DNA from: Squalus acanthias
Lineage: Eukaryota
Reading direction: 5' to 3'
DNA length: 64,000 bases
NCBI GenBank assembly: GCA_030390025.1
Contig: CM059432.1
Span: forward strand, 12,090,001 to 12,154,000
Part shown: one piece after another, positions 9,584 through 59,729 of the stretch
Position numbering within the stretch: position 1 is the stretch's first letter
Layout of the letters: every line of letters begins with the position of its first letter
Notes under the pieces: model-generated
What the model saw: only the letters and a program-made list of their open reading frames with translations
The model's database searches: none
What the model was told of the DNA's origin: nothing
Made by a program: the position numbers and the translations under genes

Positions 9584-9717
9584 GGGGCAGTTTCATATCT
9601 CGCCTGGTTTTTATTTCTATTGAAGTTACCTGAAATAAAAATGGGGAGAGATGTAAAATGGGGCGCTAATTCACTGTCGCCCGTTTTACACTATCGCACA
9701 AAGTCAAAATCTACCCC
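9584..9717. mobile_element. Possible tiny Harbinger-like MITE (134 bp)
   Basis: Seen: GGGGCAGTTTC / AAAATCTACCCC weak TIR, flanks ATT/AAT within an AGACAC..GTGACT context, internal GGGGCGCTAA motif. Confidence 0.4.
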
Positions 9718-19493: not shown

Positions 19494-20341
19494 GGCCAGA
19501 ATTTTGCCGGCGCTTAGGGGGCAGGTTTGGAGGCAGGACATCCGGCAAAATCGCAAAAATTGACAGCGGGTCAGAAACCCGCTGTCAACCCGCCTCCAAT
19601 CAATCTTCCCAAGTGTCGGGTCCCCAATTTGCAGCAGGCGGGAAGAGGATTATAGCCACTTAACTGCTTGTTAACAGGTTGTTATCAGGCAGTTAACAGG
19701 CTTTTTCCAATTTTGACACTTCTACTGCGGGCTTCCCGACGTCCGGACACCACGCCAGGTAAGTGTGGCGTGTTGTGAGTCTGCTGTAATGTTTCTGCAT
19801 TGATGACAGCTGCAGAAGTGGTGTGAAGGATCCAACGGCGCACTGGTGAGTTTCAGAGGTAAGAAAATGTTGGGAGATTCATTTTTAATGCATTTAGACT
19901 TTTCTGTAGGTAACAGGTTTTGAATTGTATGTGTAGTCCCACCTCATTGGGAGAACCTCTCTCACCAGTGACACATCGCTTCCGTAACCTCACTTGCAGC
20001 TGCCATCTGTTCTAGCCTAAGGAGGGAGTCACTGGAGAGTCTGGGTGCAAGAGCTCATGTTTGTACAGTGAATGTCAGTGTTTGCAGCACCTCAATGCTG
20101 TCAAACACTGAAAAATCAACTGTCAAAAAAAATTGTGCGTGGTCCCTTTAAGAAAACCGGCAGATGCCACGTCATCAAATTACCTCATCTGACACCGGCT
20201 TCCTCTTAATTGGCTGGAGGGTGGGCTTAACAAGGCCAATTGACATAAAATTACATTTGTGAGCCGGATGTAGTTGGGGCGGGACTGGAACCTGGAAGGC
20301 AGCTAACCCTCCCAAGCTGCCCGAAGCATAAAATTGCAGCC
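19494..20341. mobile_element. Harbinger-like MITE, second family (about 850 bp)
   Basis: Seen: GGCCAGAATTTT / AAAATTGCAGCC imperfect TIR, flanks CAT/TAT. Shares colinear internal blocks with 33666-34504. Confidence 0.65.
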
Positions 20342-24664: not shown

Positions 24665-26735
24665 TTACCGCACGAAAGAAGGCCGTTCGGCCTGTCGAGC
24701 CCGTGCCGACTCTCAGCTAGTCCCACTCCCCCGCCCTTTCCCCGTAGCCCTGCAAATTGCTTTCCTTCAGATACTTATCCAACTCCCTTTTGAAAGATAA
24801 GATTGAGGCTGCCTCCACCACCCTTTCAGGCAGAGCATTCCAGATCTTAACCACTCGCTGCGTAAAAAAGTATTTTTAATGTCGCCTTTGGTTCATTTGC
24901 AATGAAACTGGAAATTAGATTGCAACACCGTCAGCTGAACAGAACTGAAAGCTGGTTGTGTGGGTGGGGTGGGCTGGTGGGTGTTTGTAAATAGATATTG
25001 GGCCAAAAATTGATGCCGCTACGCGAGAGGTTTAGCTGTTATTTTGGGGGTGTGTAAGATTCATAGCTTTCACAGCACGTATGTGAAACTTATGAATGGA
25101 AGATGGTGTGCTGCCATTGGCTCTAACTGAGTCATGTGATCCCACAGCTCGCACGAATTCACTACGCCGGTGGGATACGCAAGCACTGCCCAGCTGATGT
25201 CTAGAACATCAAGTTCGTGCGAGCTAGATCTGAAAAAGCCAACGCGGAGTGAGAGATCGCGCCTGCTCCTTACCCCCGCGGGAACAGAGCGAGATCAATT
25301 TCTGGGCCATTAGTTGCCTTTTCCCTCTGCCTTTATCTCTGTAAATAGTGAAAGGTTTTGATAGAGTGGATACAGAGAGAGTGTTTCCACTTGTGGGGAA
25401 GAGCATAACTAGAGGCCATCAATATAAGATAGTCACCAAGAAACCAAATTAGGGAATTCAGAAGAAACTTCTTTACCCAGAGAGTGGTGAGAATGTGGAA
25501 CTCGCTACCACAGGGAGTGGTTGAAGCGAATAGTATAGATGCATTTAAGGGGAGGCTGGATAAGCATATGAGGGAGAAGGGAATAGAGGGTTATACTGAT
25601 AGAGTGAGATGAGGAAAGACGGGAGGAGGCTCGAGTTGTGCATAAACGCCGGCGTGGCCTGGTTGGGCCGAATGGCCTGTTTCTGTGCCGTATATCCTAT
25701 GTAAGTGGAAGTGCTTCACAGATCTAACAGCAGGGCCGAGAGCAGCGTTGTATCGCTGCAATCCACTGCAGATTAAATTCTGCTAACTGCCTAGTGATTC
25801 CATCACATCGAATCCTTCAGTGACCCTTGGGTTTCCAGCTCCTGATCCCTTGTCAAAATGTTTCTGTGTAGCTTTAAGCGTTATCCTACATGGTGTCAAA
25901 AACTAAATACAGTATAAAAAGCATGGCCATACAGTGAGGGTGGTGGTATTTTGCTTGCATCTAGTGGCGCTGTCATGCATAATAGTGATCCACACGCAAA
26001 GTCGGTTGTCAATTTATACCTGATTGGTTTAAATATCATATTCATAAAACAACAACACATCACACCTATGAATGATCAAATAGAATCATAGAATGATACA
26101 GCACAGAAGGAGGCCATTCAGCCCATCGTGCCTGTGAAAGCGCTCTCCAAATAGTCCCATTCCCCTGCCCTTTCCTCACCCCTTCAAGCATTTATCCAAT
26201 TCCCTTTTGAAAGTTACTATTGAATCTGCTTCCACCGCCCTTTCAGGCAGTGCCTCCCAGATCATGACAACTCGCTGCGTAAAAAAAAAAATCTCAGATC
26301 ACCTCTGGTTCTTTTGCCAATTACCTTAAATCAGTGTCCTCTGGTTTTCGACCCTTCTGCCACTGGAAACAGTTTCTCCTTATTTACTCTGTCAAGACCC
26401 TTCATGATTTTGAACACCTCTATTAACTCTCCCCTTAACCTTCTCTGCTCTAAGGAGAACAAACCCAGTTTCTCGAGTCTCCCCACATAACTGAAGTCCC
26501 GCATCCTTGGTACCATTTTAGTAAATCTCATAGAATTATAGAAATTTACAGCACAGAAGGAGGTCATTCGGCCCCTCTTGTCTGTGCCAGCCGACCAAGA
26601 GCTATCCACCACCCTTTCAGGCAGTGCATTCCAGATCGTAACAACTCACTGCGTAAAAAAAAACCTCCTCAGCTCACCTCTGGTTCTCCTCTGCACCCTC
26701 TCCAAGGCCTTGACATCCTTCCTGAAGTGTGGTGT
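24665..26735. mobile_element. Cluster of short CR1 3' fragments (24665-24900 minus, 25345-25703 plus, 26080-26735 minus and nested)
   Basis: Seen: FFTQRVV..WN.LP remnants and CR1 tails. Confidence 0.8.
25000..25308. mobile_element. Short Harbinger-like MITE (309 bp)
   Basis: Seen: 15-bp TIR GGGCCAAAAATTGAT / ATCAATTTCTGGGCC (2 mismatches) with exact 3-bp TSD ATT. Confidence 0.7.
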
Positions 26736-33596: not shown

Positions 33597-34895
33597 TAAA
33601 AACAGAAAATGCTGGAAACACTCAGCAGGTCAGGCAGCATCTGTGGAGAGAGAAACAGAGTTAACGGGTGCGATCTTGCCAGCCCTGGGGAGGCGGGTTT
33701 GGAGGCGGGATTGCTGGGAAAATGGCAGAATCTGGGGATGGGTACCCATCTCGCCCCCAACCTGCCTCCGTGCCATCTTCCCAGGAGGCAGGTACCCGAC
33801 CCGTGCCGGGTCCCGTCTCCTCGAGGCGGGAAGGGGATTAGTGCCAATTAACTGCCTGTTAACAGATAGTTTAACAGGCAGTTTTTTGGCTAATCCCTAT
33901 TTTGAACCCTAAAGTGTGGGCTTCCCGACAGCGCCGAACCTCGCCAGGGTCAGCGAGGCGAGCCGTGGGTCTGCGGGGGTCGGAGGGGCCGAAATGTCCG
34001 GTGTGCAGGTGAGTGATGAGTGCAAGTGTGGAGAGGTAAGTGTGTGAGGTGACTCTAAAGTGTTTTAATAAGATTACTTACCTTTGTTTCTTCCTCCAGG
34101 CTTCATCCCTTTAGGCTGCGGAGCTGCCTCATCTCACCGGCAGAGATGACAGAATGGCCGCTGTATTCTTAAATGCAGCAGCCTTCTGCTCAGAAAAGCT
34201 TTCTAAGTGAGTCTTGAGTAAAGGACCCAACTTAGAAGACAGATTGTCAGTGTTTGACGGCTTCACAGAGCTGTCAAACACTGACAATTCATCTGTCAAA
34301 AAATCTTGACAGATGAAACGTCATACGCTGACGTTCTCTGTAACCGGCTTTCCCTTAATTGGCCTGCTAAGCCCTCTGGGAGGGCTTAACAAGGTCAATC
34401 AAGAGAAAATAGCATGGGTTGGCTGGATGTCGATGGAGGCGGGACTAAAACCCGACAAGCAGCTTTCCCGCCTCCATCACGTCCCCATTGATAAAATCAT
34501 CCCCAAGGTGTCAGGTTGATGACCTTTCCTCAGAACTGGAGAAATGTAACAGGTTTTTAAGCAAGTACAGAGGCAGAGAGATGGGGGAGGGGATGAAAGA
34601 ACAAAGGGGAAGGTATGTGATCGGGTGGGAGGCAGGAGGAGAGATTAAATGATAAAAGGGATGATGGTGCGAGGCAAAAGGAGATGGTAATGGGACAAGT
34701 AAAGAAACAAAAGATGGGTCCAGAGGAGGTGTAAATGGGAATATCAGGATCATCTCCAACAGCTGCCGTCCTTAAAAATGGGGACAGAGGTTATGATCTG
34801 AAATTGTTGAACTCAATGTTTAACTCAAGATAAGCTCAAGGAACAGCACCTCATCTTTCGATTCGGCACTTTACATCCCGAGTTCAACAATTTCA
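33597..34895 (-). mobile_element. Penelope-like element 3' end/pLTR (family A) with endonuclease C-terminal remnant, interrupted by a MITE
   Basis: Seen: minus strand 34791-34820 encodes NIEFNNFRS-stop; an inverted piece at 34832-34894 encodes KLKEQHLIFRFGTLHPEFNNF. Known: E..I..L.TL.P.GLN is the conserved end of PLE GIY-YIG domains. Confidence 0.75.
33666..34504. mobile_element. Harbinger-like MITE, second family, inserted into a Penelope-like repeat
   Basis: Seen: GGGTGCGATCTT / AAAATCATCCCC ends, flanks AAC/AAG, host repeat resumes on both sides. Shares blocks TAACTGCYTGTTAACAG, GGGCTTCCCGAC, CTGTCAAACACTGA and GGGCTTAACAAGG with 19494-20341. Confidence 0.7.
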
Positions 34896-35613: not shown

Positions 35614-35699
35614 ATGGCAACCCTAAATGCATAGACCAGTTGGGGCGAATGGCCTGTTTCCTGTGCTGTACAATCTATAGGGGGTAATTTTAATATAAC

Positions 35700-41787: not shown

Positions 41788-41929
41788 AACTTGGGTTTTA
41801 CACACTGCATAATAGTCAAAGGAGAGTAAAATCAAGCGGGGTGTAAAACCAACTTTGCACTAGATCTCTTCAATTTCCCGACGGGCAGCTTGGCCCCCTT
41901 CCACAAGTCTATGTAGGCTGCAATTTGCT

Positions 41930-42270
41930 CCTCTTAGCGGCAGATGGCGCTGACCTCCCTGAACAACAACTCCTCCCCTCCCCAGTGCTGTGCGCTCTCC
42001 CACCGAGAGGTGGCGCCCACTCTCCGCCCACCCGGGGAGCCGCAGGTTATTCCTCCCGGCGGCAGGGGGCGCGGCCGCGCACCGAGACCCGAAGCCTGGG
42101 TGCCTAGCAACGAGAGCTGGGCGGCCTGAGGCCTGGCTTTACTCTCACTCCGTGCGCCGGCTCTGATGGACATCCCGCCGATACACAGGTGTCTGCAGGT
42201 GAGTGAAGTGACGGAGGGGCTCGCACCTGAACCTCCAGCGGCCGCGGTCCCTCTGAGACCGGGCACCCAG
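41930..42270 (+). promoter_or_regulatory. CpG-rich candidate promoter and first exon of an unidentified plus-strand gene
   Basis: Seen: non-repeat-like CpG-rich patch with three co-oriented CTCF-like motifs (41937, 42003, 42059), X-box-like GGTGCCTAGCAAC (42099-42111) and consensus donor CAG|GTGAGT at 42198/42199. Function is inferred. Confidence 0.55.
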
Positions 42271-42403
42271 ATCGGAGTTATACTGCCGAAAGTGTCACTT
42301 GACAATTCCCTGATATCACCTGCTATGGGATAAATAAAAGACTTTCTTTACAAAAGTCACAATAGCAATAGTATGGACACTCATCAGTGTGTTTAAAAAA
42401 TGA

Positions 42404-42701
42404 TGTGGAGATGCCGGTGTTGGACTGGGGTGGACAAATGTGAGAAGTCGCACAACACCAGGTTATAGTCCAACAGCTTTATTTGAAATCACAAGCTTTC
42501 TGAGCGCTGCTCCTTCGTCAGGTGAAGTGAAGAGATGCATATAGGCACAGCATATATAGTCATATAGTGTTCTCTGACTATATATGCTGTGCCTATATGC
42601 ATCTCTTCACTTCACCTGACGAAGGAGCAGCGCTCCGAAAGCTTGTGATTTCAAATAAAGCTGTTGGACTATAACCTGGTTATGTGCGACTTCTCACATT
42701 T
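42404..42701. mobile_element. Fold-back Penelope-like pLTR insertion (family B): 127-bp arms, 12-nt loop
   Basis: Seen: 42436-42562 is the reverse complement of 42575-42701 with 3 mismatches. Flanked by direct repeat TTTAAAAAATGA (42392-42403, 42699-42710). PLE assignment is inferred from the hammerhead motif and architecture. Confidence 0.75.
42612..42648 (+). ncRNA. Minimal hammerhead ribozyme-like motif (Penelope-associated type)
   Basis: Seen: TCAC-CTGACGA-A-GGAGC-AGC-GCTCC-GAAA-GC-TT-GTGA, i.e. stem I TCAC/GTGA, 5-bp stem II, palindromic AGCT. The mirror copy on the minus strand (about 42489-42525) has one stem II substitution. Confidence 0.75.
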
Positions 42702-44183
42702 AAAAAATGACTTTCATTTCTATGGTGCTTTTCACGCCCTCAGGGCAGCGCAAAGCTCTTTACAGCCAATGAAGTACTTTTTGAAGTGCAGTCACTGTTG
42801 TAATGTAGAAAACACGGCAGCCAATTTGCGCACAGCAAGCTCCCACAAACCAACGATAATGGCCAGATAATCTGCTTTAGTGATGATTGAGGGATAAGTA
42901 TTGGCTAGGACACCGGGGATAACTCTTCAAAATAGTACTGTGGGATAAGAACATAAGAAATTGGAGCAGGAGTAGGCCATAATGCCCCTTCAGCCTGCTC
43001 CGCCATTCAGTAAGATCATGGCTGATCATAGACCTCAACTCCACTTTCCCGCCCTGATCTCCATATCCCTTGATTCTCCTGGAGTCCAAACATCTATCAA
43101 TCTCAGCCTTGAATATACTCAAAGATTCAGCATTCACAGCCCTCTGGGGCAGAGAATTTCAAAGATTCACAACCCTCTGAGTGAAGAAATTCCTCCTCAT
43201 TTCTGTCTTAAATGGCCTACCCCTTATCCTGAGACTATGCCCCCTAGTTCTAGACACTCCAGCCAGAGGAAAAAACTCTCCGCATCTACCCTGTCAATCC
43301 CCTTCAGAATCTTGTATGTTTCAATGAGATCACTGCTCATTCTTCTAAACTCCAGACAGTATAGGCCCAATCTACTCAATCTCTAATCATAGGACAGCCC
43401 TCTCATCCCAGGAATCAATTTAGTGAACCTTCGTTTCACCGCCTCCAAGGCAAGTATATTCTTCCTTAGATAAGGAGACCAAAACTGTGCACAGTACTCC
43501 AGGTGTGGTCTCACCAAGGCCCTGTACAATTGTAGCAAAACTTCCTTACTCTTGTACTCCAACCCCCTTGCAATAAAGGCCAACATGCCATTTGCCTTCC
43601 TTATTGCTTGCTGTTCCTGCATGCTAGCTTTCTGTGTTTCTTGCACAAGGACACCCAAATCTCTCTGAACACCAACATTTAATAGTTTCTCACCATTTAA
43701 ATAAAATTCAGTTTTTCTGTTCTTCCTACCAAAGTAAATAACACCACATTTCCCTACATTATACTCCATCTGCCACCTTACTGCCCACTCACTTAGTCTA
43801 TCTATATCCCTTTGCAGACTCTTTGGGGGAAAAATTAGGTCGCGCCCCATTTGGGGCGCAAATATCGTCTGGACGCAAATATTAGCGCCTGGCGCTAATT
43901 ATCGCCACTGACTGGAAACTTCACTTTTACCGCCCCGGGAGGTGAGTGGAGCGCTAAATCAGGTGCTGCACACCTGTCTTAAGGCGCAAAGGCCGAGCAG
44001 TGAGGCGCTAACTCAGCGCGCGAGCGCAGCACAGCTGCTGCCAGTTAGCGAGGGAACACAGACACACTGGCGCCGGCCACTTCTTAAAGCGGGGGGGTCC
44101 AACTTGCTCCCCAGCCACACCCTGCTCATTGCAGCCTTGAATCTCGGCCTGGAGAGACCTGTGAATCCATTTTGCTGCCAAGG

Positions 44184-46003
44184 ATGGAGAGGGAGAGAGA
44201 ACGAGCTCATCGCTTCACCGAGCGGGCCTTGGATGCTCTGGTTGGCGCGGTGGAGCGCAGAAGATGTATACTCTTCCCTGAGAGTGGCAGGAGGCCTTTG
44301 CCACGCGAGTTCAGAAGAGTGTGGAGGGAGGTGGCTCAGAGCGTCTCCTCCAGGAGCATGGTGCCCAGGACCCATACTCAATGCCGCAAAAAGTTCAACG
44401 ACCTCACTCGGGTCGTCAGGGTGAGTGGCTTTTTCTCAATACCTCTCCATCCCTCCATCTCAACCTCACTCTATGGCCAGAGGGTCTTAAAACCCCAATG
44501 CACAACACTCATCCAACACCTATGGCCCTTTCATGAAACACACACACACATTCCACACTTTGCATACAGTAAGGGCTATTCACCTATGGGAGGCACATCA
44601 GGCAAGACCATGGCTGCATACAGTAAGGGCTATTCACCTATGGGAGGCACATCAGGCAAGACCATGGCTGTATATTTACTCAGATGCTGTCCTTTTTCTT
44701 GCAGGCCAAGCTGGCGCATAATCGGAGACAGCAGCAACGGACAGGTGGAGGGCGGCCTCAGCTGCAACCCCTCAGCGATCTTGAGGAGCGCGTCCACAGG
44801 ATTGTGGCAAGCCGGGTGATCGGTCCCGTCGCCACTGGAGACGCCGACCCCGTTCTGGACAGCAATGGTAAGGTCATCACCTTTTTGTCCTCTGTCCTTC
44901 CACTTGTCCCTCACAACACCAGCCTTTGACACTTTCAATCCAACTTGCTAACTCGCTGCACTTATTCCTCCCTTACTGCCACCCTGTCCTCACGCTAAAG
45001 CCACTCTTGTACCTCCCTGCTTTCAGATGGTGATTCACCAGCTGAGGAGACGGGCCCTGAAGCTGCCACTGGGAGTGAAGCTGCAGCCGAGGAGGAAGAG
45101 GAAGCCGGAGCATCAGTGCCACCCTCTCCCGAGGAAGCCCATGCCCACACTGGGAACACGCCTTCCCTGGAGGGGAGCAGGGGGGAAGGGTCTGATGAGG
45201 GTGAAGCTCCAGGACCCAGCGGGCTGCAGCAACGCCATGGGGGTAGGGAAGAACGGGGGCCTTCTCCCCAGAGGGAGAGTATGCCAGACACTCCTACTGC
45301 AATGGACGCAGAGGAGGAGCGGCTGATCGCAGAAATGAACACCCAGGCGGTGGGCATGCACACTGAGCTCATGGGTGCAGTGGGAAGGGTGCCCGAATGC
45401 ATTGAGTCACTGGCAAGGAGTGTGGAGCACTTCGCTGTAGCACAGGCGGATGCCACACTAACGCTTAGTGCTGCAATTCAGTCACTGGCTGCCGTGATCC
45501 CATCTCTGACTGCTCTCATGCAGACTCAGATTGAGGCCACGCGAGCACAGACTGCTGCCAACCTCGATGGTTCGTTCACATGTCCCCGGGGCTGTCACCG
45601 CGCCGCAGCAGGCCAGCAATCTGTTCTCCAGCAGATTGCTCCGGATACTGAAGTGCTGCCCCGTGGGAGTGCCAGTGTGTCGGGCGAGCAGGGAGTTGCT
45701 GTCCTCTCTCACGATGACAGCATTCCTGCTGCCAACACTGTCACTTCTCCACTGCACTTGCCACCGCCTGTAGGACAGACTGCTGCTGCCCATGCAGAGT
45801 TGGTGCAGTCTGCAGCCGGGCCCTCCAGGCCCAGAACTGGTCAAGGCCGTCCTTCAGGGGCATCTGCAGTGTCAGGGTCTGACGAGCAGCAGCCTTCCAC
45901 CAGCCTTGCTGCAGCCACTGAGGTCCCATTACGGAGGAGCAGTAGGGTTAGAAGGGGGGAAGTGCGCAAGGGAAGGAGATCACCCTCGAAGGGCAAAAAG
46001 TAG
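44184..46003 (+). CDS. Harbinger Myb/SANT-like DNA-binding protein (NAIF1/MSANTD-like), 3 exons: 44184-44420, 44705-44867, 45027-46003; 458 aa
   Basis: Seen: ATG 44184; donors GTGAGT (44421) and GTAAGG (44868); acceptors ..TTTTTCTTGCAG (44704) and ..CTGCTTTCAG (45026); phases 0 and 1 give an open 1377-nt CDS ending in TAG. Known: RFTERALDALV..WREVA..RTHTQCRKKFNDL plus a downstream TGGG motif match Harbinger Myb-like partners. Confidence 0.88.
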
Positions 46004-46313
46004 GAGGTGTGACAAAATGCTGGTCATTTTTTTATTAAAGGTCGAGGTTCGTGGTCCAACTTTTGTTTAGTGTTTTGGACATTATCTCCAGGTTGTGAGA
46101 ACCAGTTATGTTATTGACTTTTTTTGTGTTTATTTCTATGAGTTTGTCATGAGGAATTGACACACACAGAGTTTGTAAAATAAATAAGTTTCTGTATTCA
46201 AAATATACATGGTTGGTGGTTGGAATTATTGGTGCCTTGGCCGGCTTAGGGGTTGCGTGCTGGGTTCATTGATGTTGTTAGCAATGGCAGAAGCCATTTC
46301 CACAGCAGGGGCC

Positions 46314-47472
46314 CTAGAAGCGGCTTGCTATCAGCCGTTGACGGACGGCCCTTGCAGTTTGACCATTGTGGGCCGCCCTCCCGCCTTGGTGCTGCTGATG
46401 ATCATCCTCCTCGTCCTCTTCCTCCTCTTCCTCCTCCTCCTCTGGTGGTGCTCCAAGGCCTGGTGGCATTGGCTGGGTCCTGAGGATTGCCATGTTATGC
46501 AACATGCAGCACACAACTACGAAGTTGGATACTCGCTCAGGCGAGTACTGCAGGGCTCCTCCAGAATGGTCGAGACAGCGGAACCGTTGCTTCAGCACGC
46601 CGATTGTGCGCTCAATTATGTTCCTGGTAGCTTGATGGCTCTCATTGTACCGCAGCTCAGCAGGGGTGTTGGGCGTACGGAGCGGTGTCATCAGCCAGGT
46701 GCTCAATGCATACCCCTTGTCCCCGAGAAGCCAACCAACTGGCTGATGCGGTGCCTCAAAGTTCTCCCACAGTAGTCTGGCGCAGGATAAAAGCATCGTG
46801 GCAGCTGCCAGGATAGTGGGCATTGACAGCGAGTATCAGCTGTCTGTGGTCACAGACCAACTGAACATTCAAGGAATGGAACCCCTTTCTGTTCCGGAAT
46901 TCCTCGGCATTCTCATGTGGAGCACGCAAAGCCACATGCGTGCAGTCAATGGCGCCCTGCACCATGGGGAAGCCCGCTATCCTCGCAAAGCCCAGAGCGC
47001 GGTCACGCTGCTTGTCTGGGGTCATGGGGAAAGAGATGAACTCTCGTCTCCTTTTAAAGAGGGCATTTGTGACCTGCCGGATGCAGCAATGCACCGCGAA
47101 CTGGGAGATATTGGCGAGGTCCCCAGCAGCAGCTTGAAATGAGCCAGTAGCGTAGAAGTTGAGAGCCACTGTGACCTTCACTGCCACCGACAGAGACGTT
47201 CTGGACCTCAGTTGAGGCTGCAGATCTGGCTGCAGCAGGTGGCAGAGCTCAGTGACCACCTCCTTGCTGAATCGCAGCCTTCGCAAACACAGCTCCTCAG
47301 ACATATGAATGTAGGAGAGATGTTCACGATATACCCTGGGAGGGTAAGCTCTCCTGTACATACGCCTGTTGGCCCTCCTCCGTCTGGCCATCATTGCCAC
47401 TCTCTCTCTGCGTCTCTGTGTCCTCCGATTCAGCTGGAGCAGGACGACGCCCCCAATCAGTGCAGCCCCCAT
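46314..47472 (-). pseudogene. Harbinger (HARBI1-like, DDE_Tnp_4) transposase with a single frameshift near 46765-46775
   Basis: Seen: ATG at 47472; two overlapping ORFs give [52 protein letters not shown], then [39 protein letters not shown]. Known: catalytic D-D-E motifs of Harbinger transposases. Confidence 0.93.
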
Positions 47473-48059
47473 AGTCTCTTTGCAAGCAAAGTAATGAAGG
47501 ACAGCAACCAAAGTAGCAGCGAAGTTATGATCAGTAGGCAAAACTACCTCACAAAGTGTTGAGTCAATGCAGAAGTCTCTCTTTCTCTCTCTCCGAATCT
47601 CTCTCTCTCTCTCAGAACGAGTGGTGCGAAAATGTCCACCACAGAAAAAGACAGGAAGAGGCCCCCTTTAAATAGCGCCCCCCCCCCCCAGCCCCACAGC
47701 GATTGATAGTGTTCCAGTCTTCCGGTCGTTGGATGCGCCAGGCGGTAAGGCAGGGGGCGCCACTCAATTTCCACTCCGGGGCGCCACAAGGGCGTTGCAC
47801 CATGGAATGACGTCACAATCTGCGCGCGCAGGTGGTCGCAGCGGTAAGGTTTAGCGCCGCCGCACAATCTCTAGTTAAGTTCCCGAGCGGCGCAAACATC
47901 GCTGCGCCCGGGCGTTAGCGGCTTTGCGCCCCATTAGCGCCCTCTTAAGGCGCTAACGGGAGGCGCAACCAACTGAATTTTTACCCCTTTGTGTTCTCCT
48001 CACTGATTACTGTCCCACCTAGCTTTGTATTGTCAGCAAACTTGGATACATTACACTTG

Positions 48060-48795
48060 GGGGAAAAAATTGAATTGCGCCCCTTTTGGGGCGCTAACTT
48101 CGCCGGGGCGCTAAAAGTAGCGCCCCGAAAAAATTAGCACCCCTGCGGCCGAAATTCACCGGTAGCGCCCCAAGAGGGAAGCAGGGTGCTACTGGAAGCA
48201 CCCTGCCACCCTCTTGGGGCGCTGCGAGTGAATTTCACAGTGGCGCTGCGGCACATCACACCGCGGTACTGCAGGCCTTCCTCTCCTTAAAGGGGAGGGG
48301 CCTTGCGCAGCGCGACCTGGGGCCCAGCTGGGCCACCAGGGATCGGAGTGCCGGCAAAAGAGCCTGGCACTCAAGAGAAGTGTCGGGCTCACGGAGCGCA
48401 GCCGGCACTCCGCGGGCGGGGCTTCAGAGGAGGCCGGGGACGGCAGAGGGGGCAGGTGCTGGCAGGTGGCCAGCAACAAAAATGGCCGCCTGACATCTTC
48501 CCTTTAATTAGTACCGCCCCGACCGCAGGTAGGCCCCTCTGACCCCGTCGGACATAGCCCGGTGGTAAGTCAGGGGGCGCTACCGAAGATCGTGGCTGGG
48601 GTGTGAGCGGGGCGCTGCGCACGGCGATGACGTCATCGTTGGCGGCGGGGCGCTAACAGTTACCGCCGCCGCTAACCTCCCGCTGAATTTCGCGGGAGGT
48701 GTTGGTGGCACCGCGCCCAGGCGCTAGTTGCTTTGCGTCCTGTTAGCGCCCTCTTAGGGCGCTAACAAGGCCCAAAGCAACCGAATTTTTAGGCC
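48060..48795 (+). mobile_element. Non-autonomous Harbinger MITE (736 bp), subfamily N1
   Basis: Seen: termini GGGGAAAAAATT / AATTTTTAGGCC, TSD TTG, subterminal sequences similar to both ends of 43825-47987. Inserted in the same CR1 copy 72 bp from the large element. Confidence 0.88.
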
Positions 48796-50520
48796 TTGGT
48801 CCCTTCATCTAGGTCATTAATATAGATTGTAAATAGCTGAGGCCCCAGCACTGATCCTTGCGGCACCCCACTAGTTACAGCCTGCCAACCTGAAAAAGAC
48901 CTATTTATCCCTACTCTCTGTTTTCTGTTCGTTAACCAATCCTCTATCCATGCTACTATATTACCCCCAACCCCATGAGCCCTTATCTTGTGTAATAACC
49001 TTTTATTTGGCACCTTATCGAATGCCTTTTGGAAATCCAAATATACTACATCCACTGGTTCCCCTTTATCTACCCTGCTAGTTACATCCACAAAAAACTC
49101 TAATAAATTTGTCAAACACGATTTCCCTTTCATAAAACCATGTTGACTCTGCTTAATCATGTTATGATTTTCTAAGTGCCCTGATACCACTTCTCTAAGT
49201 TTGCAGACGACACAAAGCTGGGTGGGCATGTGTGCTGTGAGGAGGATGCAGAGAAACTCCAGTATGATTTGGACAGATTGGGTGATTGGGCAGATGCATG
49301 GCAGATGCAGTATAATGTGGATAAACGCGAGGTAAGCATGCAGGTGCAGCAGGCGGTTAAGAAGGCAAATGGTATGTTGGCCTTCATAGCGAGAGGATTC
49401 GAGTATAGGAGCAAGGATGTCTTGCTGCAGTTGTACAAGGCCTTGGTGAGACCACACCTTGAGTACTGTGTGCAGTTTTGGTCACCTTATCTGAGGAAGG
49501 ATGTTCTTGCCATGGAGGGAGTGCAGTGAAGATTTACCAGACTGATACCTGGGATGGCAAGAATGACGTATGAAGAGAGATTGGGTCGATTAGGCTTATA
49601 TTCGCTAGAGTTTAGAAGAATGAGAGGGGATCTCATTGAAACTTATAAAATTTTAACAGGACTAGACAGACTTGATGCAGGAAGGATGTTCCCGACACTC
49701 ATCATTATGAAAGGGTATTAAGGGTTATGGAACCCAAGGCGAAGGTTGTGGGTTCAAGTCCCACTCCAGAGACTTGAGCACAAATATCTAGGCTGACACT
49801 CCAGTGCAGTACTGAGGGAGTGCTGCACTGTCGGAGGTGCCGTCTTTCGGATGAGATGTTAAACCGAAGCTCTGTCTGCTCTCTCAGGTGGACAGAAAGG
49901 ATCCCATGGCACTATTTCAAAGAAGAGCAGGGGAGATATCCCTGGTGTCCTGCCCAATATTTATCCCTCAGTCCCAATATCAGAAAAAACAGATTATCTG
50001 GTCATTATCACATTGCTGTTTGTGGGAGCTTGTGTGCAAATTGGCTGCCACGTTTCCTAAATTACAACAACGACCACACATCATAAGTACTTCATTGGCT
50101 GTGAAGTGCTTTGGGATGTCCTGAGGTTGTGAAAGGCGCTTATAAAGGCTTTGTCAGGGGGAGATCATGTCTAACCAATTTGATTGAATTTTTCGAGGGG
50201 GTGACTAGGTGTGTGGATGAGGGTAGTGCAGTTGATGTTGTCTACATGGACTTCAGTAAGGCTTTTGACAAAGTCCCACATGGGAGACTGGTCAAGAAGG
50301 TAAGAGCCCATGGGATCCAGGGCAATTTGGCACATTGGATCCAAAATTGGCTTAGTGGCAGGAGGCAGAGGGTGATGGTCGAACGTTGTTTTTGTGACTG
50401 GAAGCCTGTGTCCAGTGATGTACTGCAGGGATTGGTGCTGGGTCCTTTGCTGTTTGTAGTGTACATTAATGATTTAGATATGAATGTAGGAGGTATGATC
50501 AGTAAGTTCGCAGATGACAC

Positions 50521-53500
50521 CAGGTGGGAGAAATGGGTTTTGCTTCCTGGGACACTGGCACCAGTACTGGGACAGGAGAGAGCTGTTCCGTTGGGACGGA
50601 CTTTACTTGGCCGGTGCTGGGACTAGAGTCCTGGCGAATCGAATAACTAGGGCTGTAGAGAGGGCTTTAAACTAATTAGTGGGGGGGGAGGTTTCAAGAG
50701 AGCAAAAAATAAAAATGTCAGCAGAGAAGGCAATAGAGCAAAGTAGCAGTAAGGTAATTAAAAACCAGAGCGTGTCAGGAAGGGACAGAATATATAAAGA
50801 TAAAGGTAAAGTAGTAAAGGGGGTAAAAGCAGGAATAAATTGTCACAAAACATATTTAAAAGTTCTTTATCTGAATGCACGCAGCATTCGTAACAAAATA
50901 GACGAGTTGACGGTACAAATAACTACACATGGGTATGATCTGGTGGCCATTACAGAAACATGGCTGCAAGGTGACCATGACTGGGAACTAAACATCCAGG
51001 GGTATTTGACTATTAGGAAGGACAGACAGGAAGGAAAGGGAGGTGGGGTGGCTTTGTTCATAAAGGATGGAATCACGGAAAGGGCAACACGGTGGCATAG
51101 TGGTTAGCACTGGTGCCTCACAGCGCCAGGGACCCGGGTTCGAATCTGACCTCGGGTGACTGTCTGTGTGGAGTTTGCACATTCTCCCCGTGTCTGCGTG
51201 GGTTTCCTCCGGGTGCTCCGGTTTCCTCCCACAGTCCAAAAATGTGCGGGTTAGGTTGATTTGGCTATGATAAATTGACCCTTAGTGTTAGGGGGGGGAT
51301 TAAATATGTGGGGTTATGGGGATAGGATGGGATATGTTAGGGGGAATTAAATACGTGGGGTTACGGGGGTAGGGTGGGATATGTGTACTGTGGGGATTAA
51401 AGCAGGGACAGGGTACTGGATTTGGATGATCAGCCATGATCGTATTGAATGGTGGAGCAGGCTCGACGGGCCGAATGGCCTACTCCTGCTCCTAGATTCT
51501 ATGTTTCTATGTTTCTATGAATTACTGCAATAGTGAGAAATGATATTGGGTCAAAGGACCAGGATAGTGAAACAGTTTGGGTGGAGATAAGGAATAATAA
51601 GGGGAAAAAGTCACTAGTGGGCGTAGTCTATAGGCCTCCTAACAGTTGCAACTCAATTGGTCGGAGTATTAATCAGGAAATAGTTGGGGCTTGTAATAAG
51701 GGAACAGCTATAATCATGGGAAATTTTAACTTTCATATTGACTGAACAAATCAAATTGGGCAGGGCAGCCTTGAGGAAGAGTTCATAGAGTGCATTAGGG
51801 ATGGGTTCCTTGAGCAGTATGTTACTGAACCAACCAGGGGGCAGGCAATCTTAGATCTGGTCCTGTGTAATGAGATAGGATTAATAAAAAATGTCCTAGT
51901 AAAGGATCCCCTTGGAATGAGTGACCATAACATGGTTGAATTCCAAATTCAGTTGGAGGGTGAGAGAGTTGGATCTCAAACCAGCGTACTAAGCCTAAAT
52001 AAAGGAGACTATGAAGGTATGAGAGCAGAGTTGACTAAAGTGGACTGGGAAAATAAATTAAGGTGTAAGACGGTACAGGAGCAGTGGTGTACATTCAAGG
52101 AGGTATTTCACAACTTTCAAGAAAAATATATTCCACTGAGGAAAAAGGGGCGTAAAAGAAAAGACAGCCATCCGTGGCTAAGTAAAGTAATAAAGGATAG
52201 TATCCGACTGAAAACAAGGGCATATAAAGTAGCCAAATCCAGTGGGAGGATAGAAGATTGGGAAGCATTTAAAAACCAGCAAAGAATAACTAAAAGATTA
52301 ATTAAGAAAGGAAAGATAGATTATGAAAGTAAACTAGCAAAAAATATAAAAACAGATAGCAAGAGTTTCTACAGTTATATAAAAAGAAAAAGGGTGGCTA
52401 AAGTGAATGTTGGTCCCTTAGAGGACGAGACCGGGAAATTAGTAGTGGGGAACATGGAGATGGCAAATATGCTGAACAAATATTTTGTATCAGTCTTTAC
52501 AGTAGAGGACACTAAAAATGTCCCAACACTGGACAAACAAGGGGCTATAGGGGGGAGGAGCTAAACACGATTAAAATCACTAAGGAGATGGTATTCGGTA
52601 AGATAATGGGACTTAAGGCGGATAAATCCCCTAGACCTGATGGCTTACATCCTAGGGTCTTGAGAGAAGTTGCGGTAGGGATTGCGGATGCATTGGTGGT
52701 AATTTTCCAAAACTCCCTGGATTCAGGAAAGGTCCCAGCAGATTGAAAAACTGCTAATGTAACACCTTTATTTAAAAAGGGAGGTAGACAAAAGGCTGGA
52801 AACTATAGACCAGTTAGCCTAACATCTGTGGTTGGTAAAATGTTGGAGTCCATTATTAAGGAAGCAGTAACAGGGCATTTGGATAAGCATAACTTAATCG
52901 GACAGAGTCAGCATGGTTTTATGAAGGGGAAATCATGCTTGACAAATTTGCTCTAATTCTTTGAGGACGTAACAAACAAGGTGGATAAAGGGGAATCAGT
53001 GGATGTGGTGTATTTGGACTTCCAAAAGGCATTTGACAAGGTGCCACACAAAAGATTACCGCACAAGATAAAAAATCACAGGATTGGGGGTAATATACTG
53101 GCATGGGTGGAAGATTGGCTATCTAACAGAAAACAGAGAGTTGGGATAAATGGTTCATTCTCGGGTTGGCAATCAGTAACTAGTGGTGTTCCGCAGGGGT
53201 CAGTGCTGGGACCCCAACTCTTTACAATCTATATTAACGATTTGGAGGAGGGGACCAAGTGCAACGTATCCAAGTTTGCAGACGATACAAAGATGGGAGG
53301 GAAAGCAGTGAGTGAGGAGGACATAAAAAACCTGCAAAAGGACATAGACAGGCTAAGTGAGTGGGCAGAAATTTGGCAGATGGAATATAATGTTGGAAAG
53401 TGTGAGGTTATGCACTTTGGCAGAAAAAATCAAAGAGCAAGTTATTATCTAAATGGAAAGAAACTGCAAAGTGCTACAGTACAAAGGGATCTGGGTGTCC

Positions 53501-54217
53501 TGGTGCATGAAACACAGAAGGTTAGTATGCAGGTACAGCAGGTGATCAGGAAGACCAATGGAATCTTGGCTTTTATTGCAAGGGGGATGGAGTATAAAAG
53601 CAGGGAAGTCTTGCTTCAGCTATACAGGGTACTGGTGAGGCCACACCTGGAATACTGCGTACAGTTTTGGTTTCCATATTTAAGAAAAGATATACTTGCT
53701 CTCGAGGCAGTTCAGAGAAGGTTCACTCGGTTGATTCCGGATATGAGGGGGTTGACTTATGAGGAAAGGTTGAGTAGGTTGGGCCTCTACTAATTGGAAT
53801 ACAGAAGAATGAGAGGCGATCTTATCGAAACATATAAGATTGTGAGGGGGCTTGATCGGGTGGATGCGGGGAGGATGTTTCCACTGATGGGTGAGACTAG
53901 AACTAGGGGGCATAATCTTAGAATAAGGGGCTGCCGTTTCAAAACTGAGATGAGGAGAAACTTCTTCACTCAGAGGGTAGTAAATCTATGGAATTTGCTA
54001 CCTCAGAGAGCCGTGGAAGCTGCGACATTAAATACATTTAAAACGGAGATAGACAGTTTCCTAGCTGATAAGGGAATTAAGGGTTATGGGGAGCGGGCAG
54101 GGAAGTGGACGTGAGTCTAGGTTCGGATCAGCCATGATCCTATTGAATGGCGGAGCAGGCCCGAGGGGCCATATGGCCTACTCCTGCTCCTACTACTTAT
54201 GTTCTTATGTTCTTATG
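50521..54217 (+). mobile_element. Long CR1: ORF1 esterase C-terminus plus disrupted full-length ORF2, containing a SINE insertion
   Basis: Seen: GFCFLGHWHQYWDRRELFRWDGLYL..AVERALN-stop at 50526-50675, then YLNARSIRNK, ITETW, VYRPP and FADD with several stops/frameshifts, and a CTTATGTT tail. Known: the SGNH-esterase DGLHL motif of CR1 ORF1. Confidence 0.92.
51082..51518 (+). mobile_element. tRNA-derived V-SINE (HE1-like) with CR1-derived tail
   Basis: Seen: A box TGGCATAGTGG, B box GGTTCGAATC, V-domain TGTGGAGTTTGCACATTCTCCCCGTGTCTGCGTGGGTTTCCTCCGGGTGCTCCGGTTTCCTCCCAC, CR1 3' UTR and (CTATGTTT)n tail. Confidence 0.88.
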
Positions 54218-54276
54218 AAAACACGAAAATTGGTGGAGTGGTAAATAGCGAGCAGGGAAGCCTCAGTCTACAGGAC

Positions 54277-57200
54277 ATAGAAACATAGAAACATAGAAGA
54301 TAGGAGCAGGAGTAGGCCATTCGGCCCCTCGAGCCTGCTCCGCCATTCGATGAGATCATGGCTGATCATCTAAACTCACTACCCTGTACCTGCCTTCTCC
54401 CCATATCCCTTAGCTTTAAGAAATATATCTAACTCAACCTTGAATATATTTAATGACTTCGCCTCAACTACCTTCTGTGGTAGAGAATTCCACAGGTTCA
54501 CCACTCTCTGGGTGAAGAAATTCTTCCTCATTTCTGTCCTAAATGGTTTACCCGTTATCCGTAGATTATGACCCCTGGTTCTGGACTCTCCGACCATCGG
54601 GAACATTCTTCCTGCATCTAGTTTGTCCAGACCTGTCAGAATTTTATATGTTTCGATGAGATCCCCTCTCATTCTTCTATACTCCAGCGAGTATAAGCCC
54701 AATCGACCCAATCTCTCCTCATATGTCATTCCTGCCATCCCAGGTATCAGCCTTGTGAATCTTTGCTGAACTCCTTCCATGGCAAGAACATCCTTCCTCA
54801 GATAAGGCGACCAAAACTGCACACAGTACTCAAGGTGTGGTCTCACCAAGGCCCTGTACAACTGCAGCAGGACGTCCCTGCTCCTATACTCAAACCTTTT
54901 CGCTATGAAGGCCAACATACCATTTGCCTTCTTCACCGCCTGCTGCACCTGCATGCTTACTTTCAGCGACTGGTGCACAAGGACACCCAGGTCTTGTTGC
55001 ACTTCCCCTTCTCCTAATCTATTGCCATTCAGATAATAGTCTGCCTTTCTGTTTTTGACACCAAAGTGGATAACCTCGCACTTATCCACATTATATTGCA
55101 TCTGCCACGCTTCTGCCCACTCACCCAACCTGTCCAGATCATCCTGGAGTTTCTCGGTATCCTCCTCGCAGCACACACTCCCACCCAGCTTTGTGTCATC
55201 CGCAAACTTGGAGATATTACATTTAATTCCCTTATCTAGATCATTAATGTATATTGTGAATAGCTGGGGTCCAAGGACCGATCCCTGCGGTACCCCACTA
55301 GTCACTGCTTGCCACTCGGAAAAAGACCCATTAATTCCTACTCTCTGCTTTCTGTCCGCCAACCAGTTCTCTATCCAAGTCAATACCTTGCCCCCAATCC
55401 CATGTGCCTTAACTTTACCCGCTAATCTCTTATGCGGGACCTTATCGAAAGCCTTTTGAAAGTCCAAATACACCACATCCACTGGTTCTCCCTTATCTAT
55501 TTTCCCAGTTACATCCTCAAAAAATTCCAGTAGATTAGTCAAGCACGATTTACCTTTTGTAAATCCATGTTGACTTTGTCCGATCCTGTCACTGTTTTTC
55601 AAATGCTCAGCTATTACATCCTTTATAATGGACTCTAGCATTTTCCCCACTACCGATGTCGGGCTTACCGGTCTGTAATTCCCCGCTTTCTCTCTACCAC
55701 CCTTTTTGAATAGTGGGGTAACATTAGCTAGCCTCCAATCCATGGGTACAGTTCCAGATTCCATCGAATGTTGGAAGATGATCAGCAATGCATCTACTAT
55801 TTCTAGGGCCACTTCCTTAAGTACCCTAGGATGTAGATTATCAGGCTCTGGGGATTTATCGGCCTTCAATACCATCAATTTCCCTAATACCATTTCCCTG
55901 CAAATACTGATTTCTTTCAGTTCCTGCCTTTCATCAGACCGTATGTTCTCCAACATCTCTGGGAGGTTATTTGTGTCCTCCTTTCTGAAGACAGAACCAA
56001 AATATGCATTTAATTGGGCTGCCATTTCTTTGTTCCCCATTATAACTTCCCCCGCTTCTGACTGCAAGGGACCTACACTTGATTTCACTAATCTTTTTCT
56101 CTTCACATATCTATAAAAGCTCTTACAGTCAGTTTTTATGTTCCCAGAAAGCTTACTTTCATATTCTATTTTCCCCTTCTTAATTAATCCCTTTGTCCTC
56201 CTTTGTTGAATCCTAAACTGCTCCCAATCCTCAGGGCTACCGCTTTTTCTGGCCAATTTATATGCCTTCTCCTTGGATCTTATGCTATCCCTAATTTCCC
56301 TTGTTAGCCACGGTTGAGTCACCCTTTTTGTTTTATTCTTATGCCACACTGGGATGAACAAATTCTGTAGTTCATCCATGCAGTCTTTGAATGTTTGCCA
56401 TTGCCTATCCACAGTCAACCCCTTGAGTGACATTTCCCAATCAATCCTACCCAATTCGCGCCTCATACCATCGTAGTTTCCTTTATTTAAATTCAGGACC
56501 CTAGTCTCTGATTCAACTACTTCACTCTCCATCCTAATGAAGAATTCTATCATATTATGATCACTCTGACCCAAGGGGCCTCGTACTACAAGATTGCTAA
56601 TTAATCCTTTCTCGTTACATAATACCCAGTCTAAGATGGCCTGATCTCTGGTTGGTTCCTCGACATATTGTTCCAGAAAACCATCTCGTAAACATTCTAG
56701 GAATTCCTCCTCCACAGTATTTTTACTAATTTGGTTAGCCCAATCTATATGTAAATTAAAGTCACCCATGATGACTGCTGTGCCCTTACTGCATGCTTCT
56801 CTAATTTCCTTTTAATGCCGTCCCCAACCTCCGTATTACTGTTTGGAGGTCTATATACCACTCCCACTAACGTTTTCTGCCCCTTGTTATTTCTCAGTTC
56901 TACCCATACAGATTCCGCATCATCAGAGCTAATATCCTTCCTTTCAATTGTGTTAATCCCCTCTTTAACCAGCAATGCTACCCCACCTCCCTTTCTTTTT
57001 TGCCTATCTTTCCTAAATATTGAATAACGCTGGATGTTGAGTTCCCAGCCTTGACCACCCTGGAGCCATGTTTCTGTAATCCCAATCAAATCGTATTAAT
57101 TTACCTCTGTTTGCGCAGCTAATTCATCCACCTTGTTCCGAATGCTCCTTGCATTAAGACACAAAGGGGGAAAAATTCAGCTGCTTGCGCCTCCCGTTAG

Positions 57201-57969
57201 CGCCTTAAGAGGGCGCTAATGGGGCGTAAAGCAGCTAACGCCCGGGCGCAGCGCCGCCCACGCCTCCCGAAAAATTCAGCGGGAGGTTAGCGGCGGCGGC
57301 AGCCGGTAGCGCCCTGTGGCGCTGCGCCGCCGGCGATGACGTCATCACCGTGCGCAGCACCCCGCTCGCGCCCCGGCCGTGATCTTCAGTCGCGCCCCCT
57401 GATTTACCGCCAGACGCTATGTCCGACGGGTTCAGGGAGGCGTACGTGCGGCCGGGGCGGCGATATTTAAAGGGGAGGTGGCAGGCGGCCATTTTTGTTG
57501 CTGGCCGCCTGCCAGCACCTGCCCCCGTTGCTGTCCCCGGCCCCCGTGAAGCCCCCCCACCGTGAAGTGCCGGCTGCGCTCCAAGAGCCCGGCACTTCTC
57601 TTGAGTGCCGGGCTCTTTTGCTGGCACTCCCGATCCCTGGGGGCCCAGCTGGGCCCCGGTTCGCGCTGCGCAGGGTCCCTCCCGTTTAAGAAGGGGAGGA
57701 AGGCCTGCAATACCGCGGCGCGACGTGCCGCAGCGCGTGGCGCTGCGGCACGTAGCGCCAGGATATTCCCTCGCAGCGCCCCAAGAGGGATGCGGGGTGC
57801 TTCCAGTGGCGTCCCGCTTCCCTCTTGGGGCGCAACCACTGAAGTTCCGGCGCGGGGCCGCTAATTTTTTCGGGGCGCTAAAAGTCGCGCCCCGGCGAGG
57901 TTAACGCCCCAAATGGGGCGCGACTCAATTTTTACCCCAAAGCCTTCAGGCTTGTTTTTTTAACGCTTT
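54277..57969 (-). mobile_element. Young CR1 with nearly intact ORF2 (796-aa ORF 54379-56769, one frameshift near 56810), interrupted by a MITE
   Basis: Seen: EN and RT motifs; CAGGAC duplication at 54271-54276 and 57970-57975. Confidence 0.95.
57166..57938 (-). mobile_element. Non-autonomous Harbinger MITE (773 bp), subfamily N1, inverted
   Basis: Seen: termini GGGGGAAAAATT / AATTTTTACCCC, TSD AAA, interrupts a CR1 endonuclease region. Interior is the diverged reverse complement of 48060-48795. Confidence 0.92.
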
Positions 57970-58821
57970 CAGGACGATATAGACGGGTTGGTTAGATGGG
58001 CAGAACAGTGGCAAATAGAATTTAACCCTGAAAAGTGTGAGGTGATGCATTTTGGGAGGACTAACAAGGCAAGGGAATACACAATGAATGGTAGGACCCT
58101 AGGAAGGACAGAGGATCAGAGGGACCTTGGTGTGCATGTACATAGATCCCTGAAGGCAGCAGGACAGGTAGATAAGGTGGTTAAAAAGGCATATGGGATA
58201 CTTGCCTTCATTAGCCGAGGCATAGAATATAAGAGCAGGGAGGTTATGATGGAGCTGTACAAAACGCTAGTTAGGCCACAGTTGGAATACTGTGTGCAGT
58301 TCTGGTCACCACACTATAGGAGGGATGTGATTGCATTGGAGAGGGTGCAGAGGAGATTCACCAGGATGTTACCTGGGCTGCAGCGCTTCAGCTATGAAGA
58401 GAGACTGGACAGGCTGGGGTTGTTTTCCTTAGAGCAGAGAAGGCTGAGTGGGGACCTGATTGAGGTGTACAAAATTATGAGGGGCATAGATAGGGTAGAT
58501 AGAAAGGAACTTTTCCCCTTAGTAGAGGAGTCAATCACCAGGGGGCATAGTTTCAAGGTAAGGGGCAGGAGGTTTAGAGGGGATTTGAGGAAAAACTTTT
58601 TCACCCAGAGGGTGGTTGGAATCTGGAACTCACTGCCTGAAAGGGTGGTAGAGGCAGGAACCCTCACAACATTCAAGAAGCATTTAGATGAGCACTTGAA
58701 ACGCCATAGCATACAAGGCTACGGACCAAGTGCTGGAAAATGAGATTAGAATAGACAGGGCTTGATGGCCGGTGCGGACACGATGGACCGAAGGGCCTCT
58801 TTCTGTGCTGTATGACTCTAT
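57970..58821 (+). mobile_element. CR1 3' part; continuation of the copy at 50145-50520 and 54221-54276
   Basis: Seen: ..SKFADDT / KIGGVVNSEQGSLSLQD / DIDGLVRWAEQWQ.. reads through the three pieces. Confidence 0.9.
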
Positions 58822-59713
58822 GGGGGAAAAATTCAGTTGGTTGCGCCTCCCGTTAGCGCCTTAAGAGGGCGCTAATGGGGCGCAAAGCAACTAGCGCCCG
58901 GGTGCGGCGATGTTTGCGCTGCTCGCGAAATTAACTAGACATTTTGCGGCGGCGCTAAACACTACCACCACGATCTCCTGCGCCGGCAGATCGTGACGTC
59001 AGTCGAGTGCGCAACACCCCGGTAGCGCCCCGGAGCGGATATTGAGTGGTGCCCCCTGCCTTACCGCCTGCCGCCAGCAACGACAGGTTGAGGGAAGCGT
59101 TTTGCAGTCAGGAAGGGACTGGGGGAGCGCTATTTAAAGGCGACCGCGTCCTGCCTTTTTTTGTTGGTGACATTTTTGAACCACGCATTCTGAGAGAGAG
59201 CGAGAGAGACTTCTGGAGAGATTCAACACTGTGTTAAGAGTTTTGGGTACTGAGCAGCACTTTGCAGTTTCATTTTGATTTGCCCTTCCTTGTATCGATT
59301 TAGAAGAGACTGTGGGGGCTGCACTCTGAGCTCTTTCCCTGGTACTCTCCATTGTTCTTTCCAGCAGATTTGATGTAAAGGTCTCTCCAGGCCGAGATTC
59401 AAGGCTGCAATGAGCAGGATGTGGATGGAAAGCAAGATCAACCCTCCCCTTTAAGAACTGGCCCGCGCCATTGTGTGTGTGTTCCATTGCTGACTGACAT
59501 CACATGAGCTTCGCCAGGGCTCTGAGGTAGCGCCTCGCTCCTCGGCCTTTGCGCCTTAAGACAGGTGTGAAGCGCCTGAATTAGCGCTCCAATCACCTCC
59601 AGGGGCGATAAAAGTCAAGTTTGCAGTCGGTGGCGATAATTAGCGCCAGGTGCTAATCTTTGCGCCCGGCCGATAATTGCGCCCCAAATGGGGCGATACT
59701 GAATTTCTCCCCC
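58822..59713 (-). mobile_element. Internally deleted derivative of the two-gene Harbinger (892 bp)
   Basis: Seen: termini GGGGGAAAAATT / AATTTCTCCCCC, flanks TAT/TAA. Left part resembles the reverse complement of about 47520-47987 and right part that of about 43825-44190 (e.g. GGTCTCTCCAGGCCGAGATTCAAGGCTGCAATGAGCAGG). Both ORFs are absent. Confidence 0.88.
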
Positions 59714-59729
59714 TAAGTCTTTTTCTTTA

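Follow-up and report, generated by a model that had tools for sequence, protein, structure and literature searches.

Eight DNA transposons of the PIF/Harbinger superfamily in a 64,000-nucleotide stretch of the Squalus acanthias genome (GCA_030390025.1, contig CM059432.1, positions 12,090,001 to 12,154,000; hereafter the window) sit in a loose 15-bp palindromic target site whose flanks resemble those of the zebrafish element Harbinger3_DR and whose three central, duplicated bases are relaxed. For this sample of eight, the observation is real and robust. Its interpretation is only partly new: an extended target preference, and C...G flanks around a free centre, have already been published. All results come from this one window of repeat-rich DNA, mostly fragments of CR1, a long interspersed nuclear element (LINE), and the statistics are scored against the element-free part of the same window.

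The eight insertions and their boundaries

The elements are listed below in coordinate order with their terminal inverted repeats (TIRs) where described, target-site duplications (TSDs) and reconstructed empty sites; miniature inverted-repeat transposable elements are abbreviated MITEs.

9584..9717: MITE, 134 bp; degenerate left TIR; TSD ATT/AAT; site AGACAC-AWT-GTGACT
19494..20341: non-autonomous element of a second family, 848 bp; TSD CAT/TAT; site GAATAC-YAT-GTGTCT
25000..25308: MITE, 309 bp; TSD ATT/ATT; site ATAGAT-ATT-AGTTGC, without the C...G core but fitting A-N-N-Y / R-N-N-T
33666..34504: relative of 19494, 839 bp; TSD AAC/AAG; site AGAGTT-AAS-GTGTCA; within a short host repeat
43825..47987, minus strand: element A, full-length Harbinger, 4163 bp; TIRs of about 12 bp (11/12 matching); TSD TTT/TTT; inside a CR1 reverse-transcriptase copy; site AGACTC-TTT-GTGTTC, in transposase sense GAACAC-AAA-GAGTCT
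48060..48795: element B, non-autonomous, 736 bp; TSD TTG/TTG; site TTACAC-TTG-GTCCCT; in the same CR1 copy as A, 72 bases apart
57166..57938: element C, non-autonomous, 773 bp; TSD AAA/AAA; site AGACAC-AAA-GCCTTC; in a CR1 endonuclease region
58822..59713: element D, 892 bp, a relative of A with an internal deletion (ends 83% and 76% identical); TSD TAT/TAA; site TGACTC-TAW-GTCTTT

Elements were delimited by locating TIR-like ends and reading the regions around them; all eight have GG...CC termini and a 3-bp flanking repeat. A scan for TIR pairs that was blind to the flanks gave 608 pairs, the best 45 of which were examined; five of the eight elements lie within these top 45, and the other pairs there are boundary variants or arose by chance. 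Elements 9584, 19494 and 33666, the three weaker ones, were delimited by eye, and the left TIR of 9584 scores -4.7 leave-one-out. Twelve of the 16 element ends begin GGG.

Mutual similarity sorts the eight into four groups: A/B/C/D, 19494/33666, 9584 and 25000. Elements B and C share A's ends and are 81% identical to each other in opposite orientation, and 33666 is 65-75% alike to 19494. The copy at 33666 is the eighth element, additional to those in a first-pass annotation of the window, whose six quoted empty sites (9584, 19494, 43825, 48060, 57166 and 58822) agree with the sequence letter for letter. The non-coding copies at 9584, 19494, 25000 and 33666 are assigned to the superfamily solely by their TIRs and 3-bp TSDs. 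The A/B/C/D group falls entirely within 16 kb (43825-59713), with A and B 72 bases apart in one CR1 copy, a pattern that may reflect local hopping or plain high copy number. Element D occupies the 3' tail of a CR1 copy (58803-58822), and behind a different CR1 tail there is another TIR-like start, at 35680 (35661-35700), with no convincing partner end; insertion at CR1 tails thus amounts to one sure case (D) and one doubtful case among eight tails found by one motif.

Empty sites place the boundaries of four elements. Once A and B are excised with one TSD triplet each, the CR1 reverse-transcriptase frame is open again and its alignment to paralogs needs no gaps, and A's empty site is collinear with seven CR1 paralogs. 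Excision of C restores the CR1 endonuclease frame, the empty site reading in frame as KALCLNARSIRNKVDEL. For 33666, two paralogs (17795 and 18396) run collinear with the empty site. Because of these empty sites, the boundaries of A, B, C and 33666 are fixed.

Public contigs from four sequencing runs, aligned to positions 43780-48840 of the window, give the same picture at A and B; among the runs of other organisms that share about half the words, only X7 and X10 were included, and the rest do not enter the evidence. Contig joints that skip 4166 bases (4163+3, element A) occur in 5, 7, 1 and 1 contigs in the four runs, and joints that skip 739 (736+3, element B) in 9, 11, 6 and 0. Most neighbouring joints at B net 739 once intervening letters are counted, and one row nets 740. 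Frame restoration and contig joints together confirm the 3-bp TSD. The contigs joined across the A and B empty sites probably represent CR1 paralogs and not alleles. In the empty form with the best support at B, TCG stands where TTG flanks the element on either side in the occupied copy; this agrees, though only anecdotally, with the central A/T preference described below. Mismatches within TSD pairs (4/24 positions) were considered as a mechanistic feature and set aside, being indistinguishable from decay (P 0.08 at 7% divergence, 0.21 at 10%).

Target-site signal

Read toward the element, the 16 half-sites have C in 13 and T in 3 at position -1, A in 11 at -2, C in 9 and G in 5 at -3, A in 14 at -4, G in 9 at -5, and A in 9 and G in 4 at -6. 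The best half-site is AGACAC and the consensus half-site R-R-A-S-A-C around a centre n-W-n, so that the whole forms a loose 15-bp palindrome. Positions -1, -2 and -4 survive Bonferroni correction, and -3, -5 and -6 individually fail it. Information at -6 to -1 exceeds that of every one of 5000 random draws; positions -7 to -12 hold none (P 0.50), and the signal ends at ±6.

The resemblance to Harbinger3_DR that the first-pass annotation proposed is borne out. Of 96 flank positions in the shark sites, 63 agree with the zebrafish flanks AAACAC/GTCTTT, where the element-free window would predict 27.6 (P 2e-14), and the two zebrafish half-sites rank 3rd and 11th of all 4096 hexamers as fits to the 16 half-sites. 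In coordinate order from 9584 to D, the sites score 8, 9, 5, 7, 8, 8, 9 and 9 of 12. The excess persists among the five best TIR pairs ranked without flank data (39/60 vs 17.3, P 3e-9), among the four copies with a perfect TSD (30/48 vs 13.8, P 7e-7), among six copies when 48060 and 58822 are dropped as possibly non-independent (46/72 vs 20.7, P 3e-10), and at the two sites that had not been counted as fits before (12/24 vs 6.9, P 0.02). Given the C-nWn-G core, the outer positions still match the zebrafish flanks (39/60 vs 18.1, P 2e-8). Where CR1 paralogs can be compared at the homologous position, the occupied copy scores 8 and the 11 empty paralogs without gaps all fall at 4-6, with a gapped paralog of site B excluded from this comparison; at 33666 the occupied copy scores 7, against 6 and 6 in its empty paralogs.

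The pattern ACWC-nnn-GT, said earlier to fit most sites, fits five of the six originally quoted when either strand is allowed (57166 fails) and five of all eight, against a background of 0.09%. C before and G after the TSD are found together at 6/8 sites. The pattern A-N-N-Y / R-N-N-T is fully matched at 6/8 sites, including 25000 (background 1.85%, P 1e-9). The MITE at 25000, previously described as a misfit, does lack the C...G core and has only 5/12 zebrafish matches, but it agrees with A-N-N-Y / R-N-N-T at all four positions, so the exclusion holds for the core and not for the looser pattern.

The centre of the TSD, by comparison, is relaxed, as had also been claimed: none of the 16 TSD copies is CWG, TWA and TNA are each fitted by one, and the central base is A/T at 8/8 sites (P 0.008). 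At the four sites that can be oriented, the central base is A in transposase sense in all, too few to test asymmetry.

Coding content and relatives of element A

Element A carries two convergent genes.

46314..47472, minus strand: DDE_Tnp_4 transposase gene with a frameshift near 46760; pieces of 238 and 148 codons; GAIDCTH, LLGDKGY and IERTIG motifs present
44184..46003, plus strand: Myb/SANT-like gene with three predicted exons (44184-44420, 44705-44867 and 45027-46003) and GT-AG introns; open for 458 codons, splicing predicted

The transposase pieces match Pfam PF13359 (E 1e-13 and 1e-20), and a tblastn search with P0001 gives 73% and 63% identity in two frames of element A. The Myb-like gene matches PF13873 (Myb_DNA-bind_5; E 1.5e-9) and is predicted to be intact in a copy whose transposase gene is frameshifted. 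Contig depth spans the whole of element A in all four runs; therefore many full-length relatives exist.

The N-terminal transposase piece has 212 homologs. The best among the 120 matches listed are shark and ray proteins, 56-72% identical, and the same matches include sturgeon at 50%. In a tree of 31 of the 120 listed homologs and the window piece, the transposase nests in a well-supported elasmobranch clade. Its nearest relatives among the matches listed, up to 72% identical, are 'putative nuclease HARBI1' proteins of Pristiophorus, Heptranchias, Heterodontus, Mobula, Narcine, Carcharodon and others; these names are automatic annotations, and no target-site description was met for these proteins. 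Two pairs have short end branches across distant species, Mobula-Narcine (P0004/P0005, 84% identical) and Carcharodon-Chiloscyllium (P0010/P0017, 85%), and could be domesticated genes or slow-evolving families.

Run X10 (labelled organism D) includes, at low depth, pieces almost identical to element A (one difference over 750 bases, none over 209), and two further runs that carry this organism and study label hardly contain any of element A's words. A mixed sample, expression differences or horizontal transfer could each account for this match.

Comparison with known Harbinger systems

The target preference of PIF/Harbinger elements reaches beyond the TSD, to 9 bp in plants and to 15 bp in vertebrates (PMC2836001). 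The Harbinger3_DR target is AAACACCWGGTCTTT (PMC3016246; PMC3432063). The same element is NuwaI-2_DRer, in the NuwaI group with CWG, of Han et al. (2015), where it is tabulated at 4204 bp with a 12-bp TIR, DDE_Tnp_4 and Myb_DNA-bind_5 (PMC4482050). In that source the target is C|TNA|G in turtle, Xenopus, amphioxus and plant families, C|CWG|G in cichlid families and C|NNN|G in fugu SENKUSHA1 (PMC4482050, Table S7), and the figure logos may already show outer flank positions. The 9-bp preference, given for plant elements in PMC6327408, and TWA TSDs also appear, between them, in PMC6327408, PMC6850418, PMC8151067 and bioRxiv 10.64898/2026.05.26.728016. No target-site logo for a Harbinger of sharks or rays came up in a literature search, which did not extend to Repbase or to most subscription journals.

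Like Harbinger3_DR, element A (4163 bp) has a TIR of about 12 bp, DDE_Tnp_4 and Myb_DNA-bind_5 genes and a 3-bp TSD, and the shark elements share its 15-bp near-palindromic target, with 63/96 flank matches and a central A/T. Unlike it, they have CWG in 0/16 TSD copies, the Myb-like open reading frame is predicted at 458 aa rather than 221 aa, and the transposase belongs to a shark/ray clade; the likeness is known from architecture and target, not from protein identity. With the NuwaII group, to which fugu SENKUSHA1 and the cichlid families belong, they share C before and G after the TSD (6/8 sites), and the free centre of SENKUSHA1 is a published precedent for kept flanks around a relaxed TSD; most NuwaII TSDs are TNA, in contrast to 1/16 copies here. 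Plant PIF/mPIF and Ping/mPing resemble the shark elements in a preference that reaches beyond the 3-bp TSD, a two-gene autonomous element and MITEs moved in trans, but their TSD is TTA/TAA and mPing sites in yeast are without A at -4 and C at -1. Among 21 distinct mPing insertions in yeast, counted by eye, A at -4 occurs in 12/42 half-sites, C at -1 in 11/42, and C and G together in 1/21. Because these sites lack it, the motif is not superfamily-wide. The maize PIF consensus CWC-TTA-GWG, a string absent from the papers searched, would match 36/48 positions against 16 expected.

These features place the elements in the PIF/Harbinger superfamily: a DDE_Tnp_4 transposase, a Myb/SANT second gene, TIRs with a 3-bp TSD, and a preference beyond the TSD (n=8). 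Precise excision is a further trait of the superfamily, as is the need for both proteins. Target selection works like that of Harbinger3_DR, yet the TSDs depart from those that define three groups. The narrow PHIS PIF/Harbinger group of Han et al. (2015) is defined by TWA, found in 1/16 copies, and NuwaI by CWG, found in none, although the GGG start of NuwaI TIRs (12/16 ends), its two open reading frames and its length of about 4.5 kb do have counterparts here. The C/G flanks of NuwaII occur at 6/8 sites and its TNA in only 1/16 copies.

Mechanism and origin of the preference

The eight insertions represent four sequence families, and their common target, a loose 15-bp palindrome with a 3-bp duplication, is probably due to a symmetric pair of transposase subunits, each of which would contact six bases on one side of a 3-nt staggered cut; this two-subunit model is suggested because the signal is symmetric about the cut and reaches ±6. 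The target would then be read by the transposase and not by the Myb-like protein, the non-coding copies may have been mobilised in trans by A-like or related enzymes, and flank reading and TSD reading could change separately.

On balance, we favour inheritance of the preference from an ancestor common to zebrafish Harbinger3_DR, because fixed single-base positions agree and mPing lacks them. More tentatively, and with somewhat less confidence than even that, animal Harbinger transposases may have kept a base-reading module for the 6+6-bp palindromic flank since the split of sharks and bony fish, the three duplicated central bases evolving separately. Several points weigh against these readings. 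Only eight sites are available, six of which were chosen by a reader familiar with the motif, and four come from a single family group within 16 kb. At -5 the shark sites mostly have G, in place of the zebrafish A. Registers shifted by -2 and +2 reach 55 and 48, the true register 63 and the others 23-30; some of the signal is therefore AC/GT alternation, which a shape-reading enzyme could reach independently. Among the matches listed, the transposase is only 39-47% identical to three named teleost hits, and the tree was built without the Harbinger3_DR protein or any other named Nuwa protein, with a midpoint root used for drawing only. The transposase of A is frameshifted. A sequence search of the PDB turned up no relative with a solved structure, and none is described in the papers that a literature search listed.

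The most serious alternative, although an unlikely one, is that the preference is real but convergent: the enzyme would select deformable DNA of alternating purines and pyrimidines, with no need for shared base-reading residues. The high scores at the -2 and +2 registers, the free TSD centre and the distance of the transposase from the named teleost hits would all fit convergence, and target choice by Sleeping Beauty is set mainly by DNA structure (PMC3016246). Convergence does less well with the strongest positions, where one particular base recurs at a fixed offset (A at -4 in 14/16, C at -1 in 13/16), with a true register that scores highest and zebrafish half-sites that rank 3 and 11 of 4096, and with the absence of the motif from mPing, a distant member of the superfamily.

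It is improbable that the Myb-like partner, or a host DNA-binding protein, chooses the site in place of the transposase. Transposition needs both proteins, and the Myb-like protein is the known DNA-binding subunit, the transposase being without an obvious binding domain (PMC2836001). What the Myb-like protein is published to bind, however, is the TIR at the element end (PMC2836001). A symmetric signal centred on the cut and limited to ±6 is instead what two catalytic subunits would be expected to leave, and the motif holds across four families that differ in subterminal sequence.

An artefact of cherry-picking, boundary placement or CR1-rich base composition is very improbable. The sample is small, four of the eight TSD pairs contain one mismatch, no empty-site control is available for 9584, 19494 or 25000, a single CR1 copy holds both A and B, and D lies in a CR1 tail. 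Against this, the window itself serves as background, the flank-blind ranking and the perfect-TSD subset remain significant (P 3e-9 and 7e-7), occupied copies outscore empty paralogs at the same CR1 position, and empty sites pin down where A, B, C and 33666 begin and end.

Selectivity

The preference is loose and not that of a site-specific integrase. Both flanks together carry about 7.8 bits after small-sample correction, and a site that equals the typical occupied one (at least 8/12 matches, central A/T) turns up every 329 bases. None of the occupied sites attains 10/12 matches, a score reached by six unoccupied sites in the window, and the pattern ASWC-nWn-GWST fits only 2/8 sites. The earlier description of a sequence-selective integrase was therefore overstated. 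The resulting bias of roughly 8-9 bits would leave millions of usable sites in a gigabase genome. A strict or guided integrase with a near-unique 15-bp target is scarcely credible: the signal does span 15 bp, but six unoccupied sites outscore every occupied one, only two sites fit the stricter pattern, the information stays at about 8 bits, and decay after insertion, which would blur a motif, is too slight for 3-7 mismatches in 12 when most aligned contigs are 90-99% alike.

Other features of the window

TIR candidates at 35680, 41790-41920, 23542, 428, 5971 and 56883 were not counted, as a convincing second end was not found. A metagenome scan with the terminal pattern returned 0 matches; a metagenome scan with the transposase returned four distant loci (38-43% identity), none with a usable TIR pair, and these were not used. 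The segment at 41790-42330 is a low-copy stretch after a CR1 tail, with subterminal hairpin words that resemble the 9584 MITE and a TIR-like word near 41917, and is possibly a truncated element. At 42420-42700, a short element has long inverted arms around a central spacer and ends that are not of the Harbinger type. A degenerate tandem repeat, G-rich on one strand, extends for about 700 bases at 13940-14660. Two 984-base CR1 segments (54450-55433 and 62121-63104), inverted, 98% complementary and 6.7 kb apart, may represent a young subfamily or a local duplication.

Implications

Harbingers were not found in the elephant shark, and other cartilaginous fish were suggested for checking (PMC9179366). 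Here, unlike in the elephant shark, they are abundant, with 73,870 and 105,197 contigs on the stretch that holds A and B in two runs. To a specialist the finding is tidy rather than surprising, and it yields no site-specific tool. If general, it would mean that the 15-bp preference known among vertebrate Harbingers from one zebrafish family also holds for several families of a cartilaginous fish, and would offer a simple account of why these elements seem to home to CR1 tails and satellites. It would also suggest that flank and TSD specificity are separable and that classification by TSD alone misses the more stable character. Should a flank-reading module indeed have been kept since the split of sharks and bony fish, the groups now defined by their TSDs (CWG, TNA and nWn) would be variants on one older flank code, and chimeras of shark and zebrafish transposases could map the residues that set flank and centre specificity.

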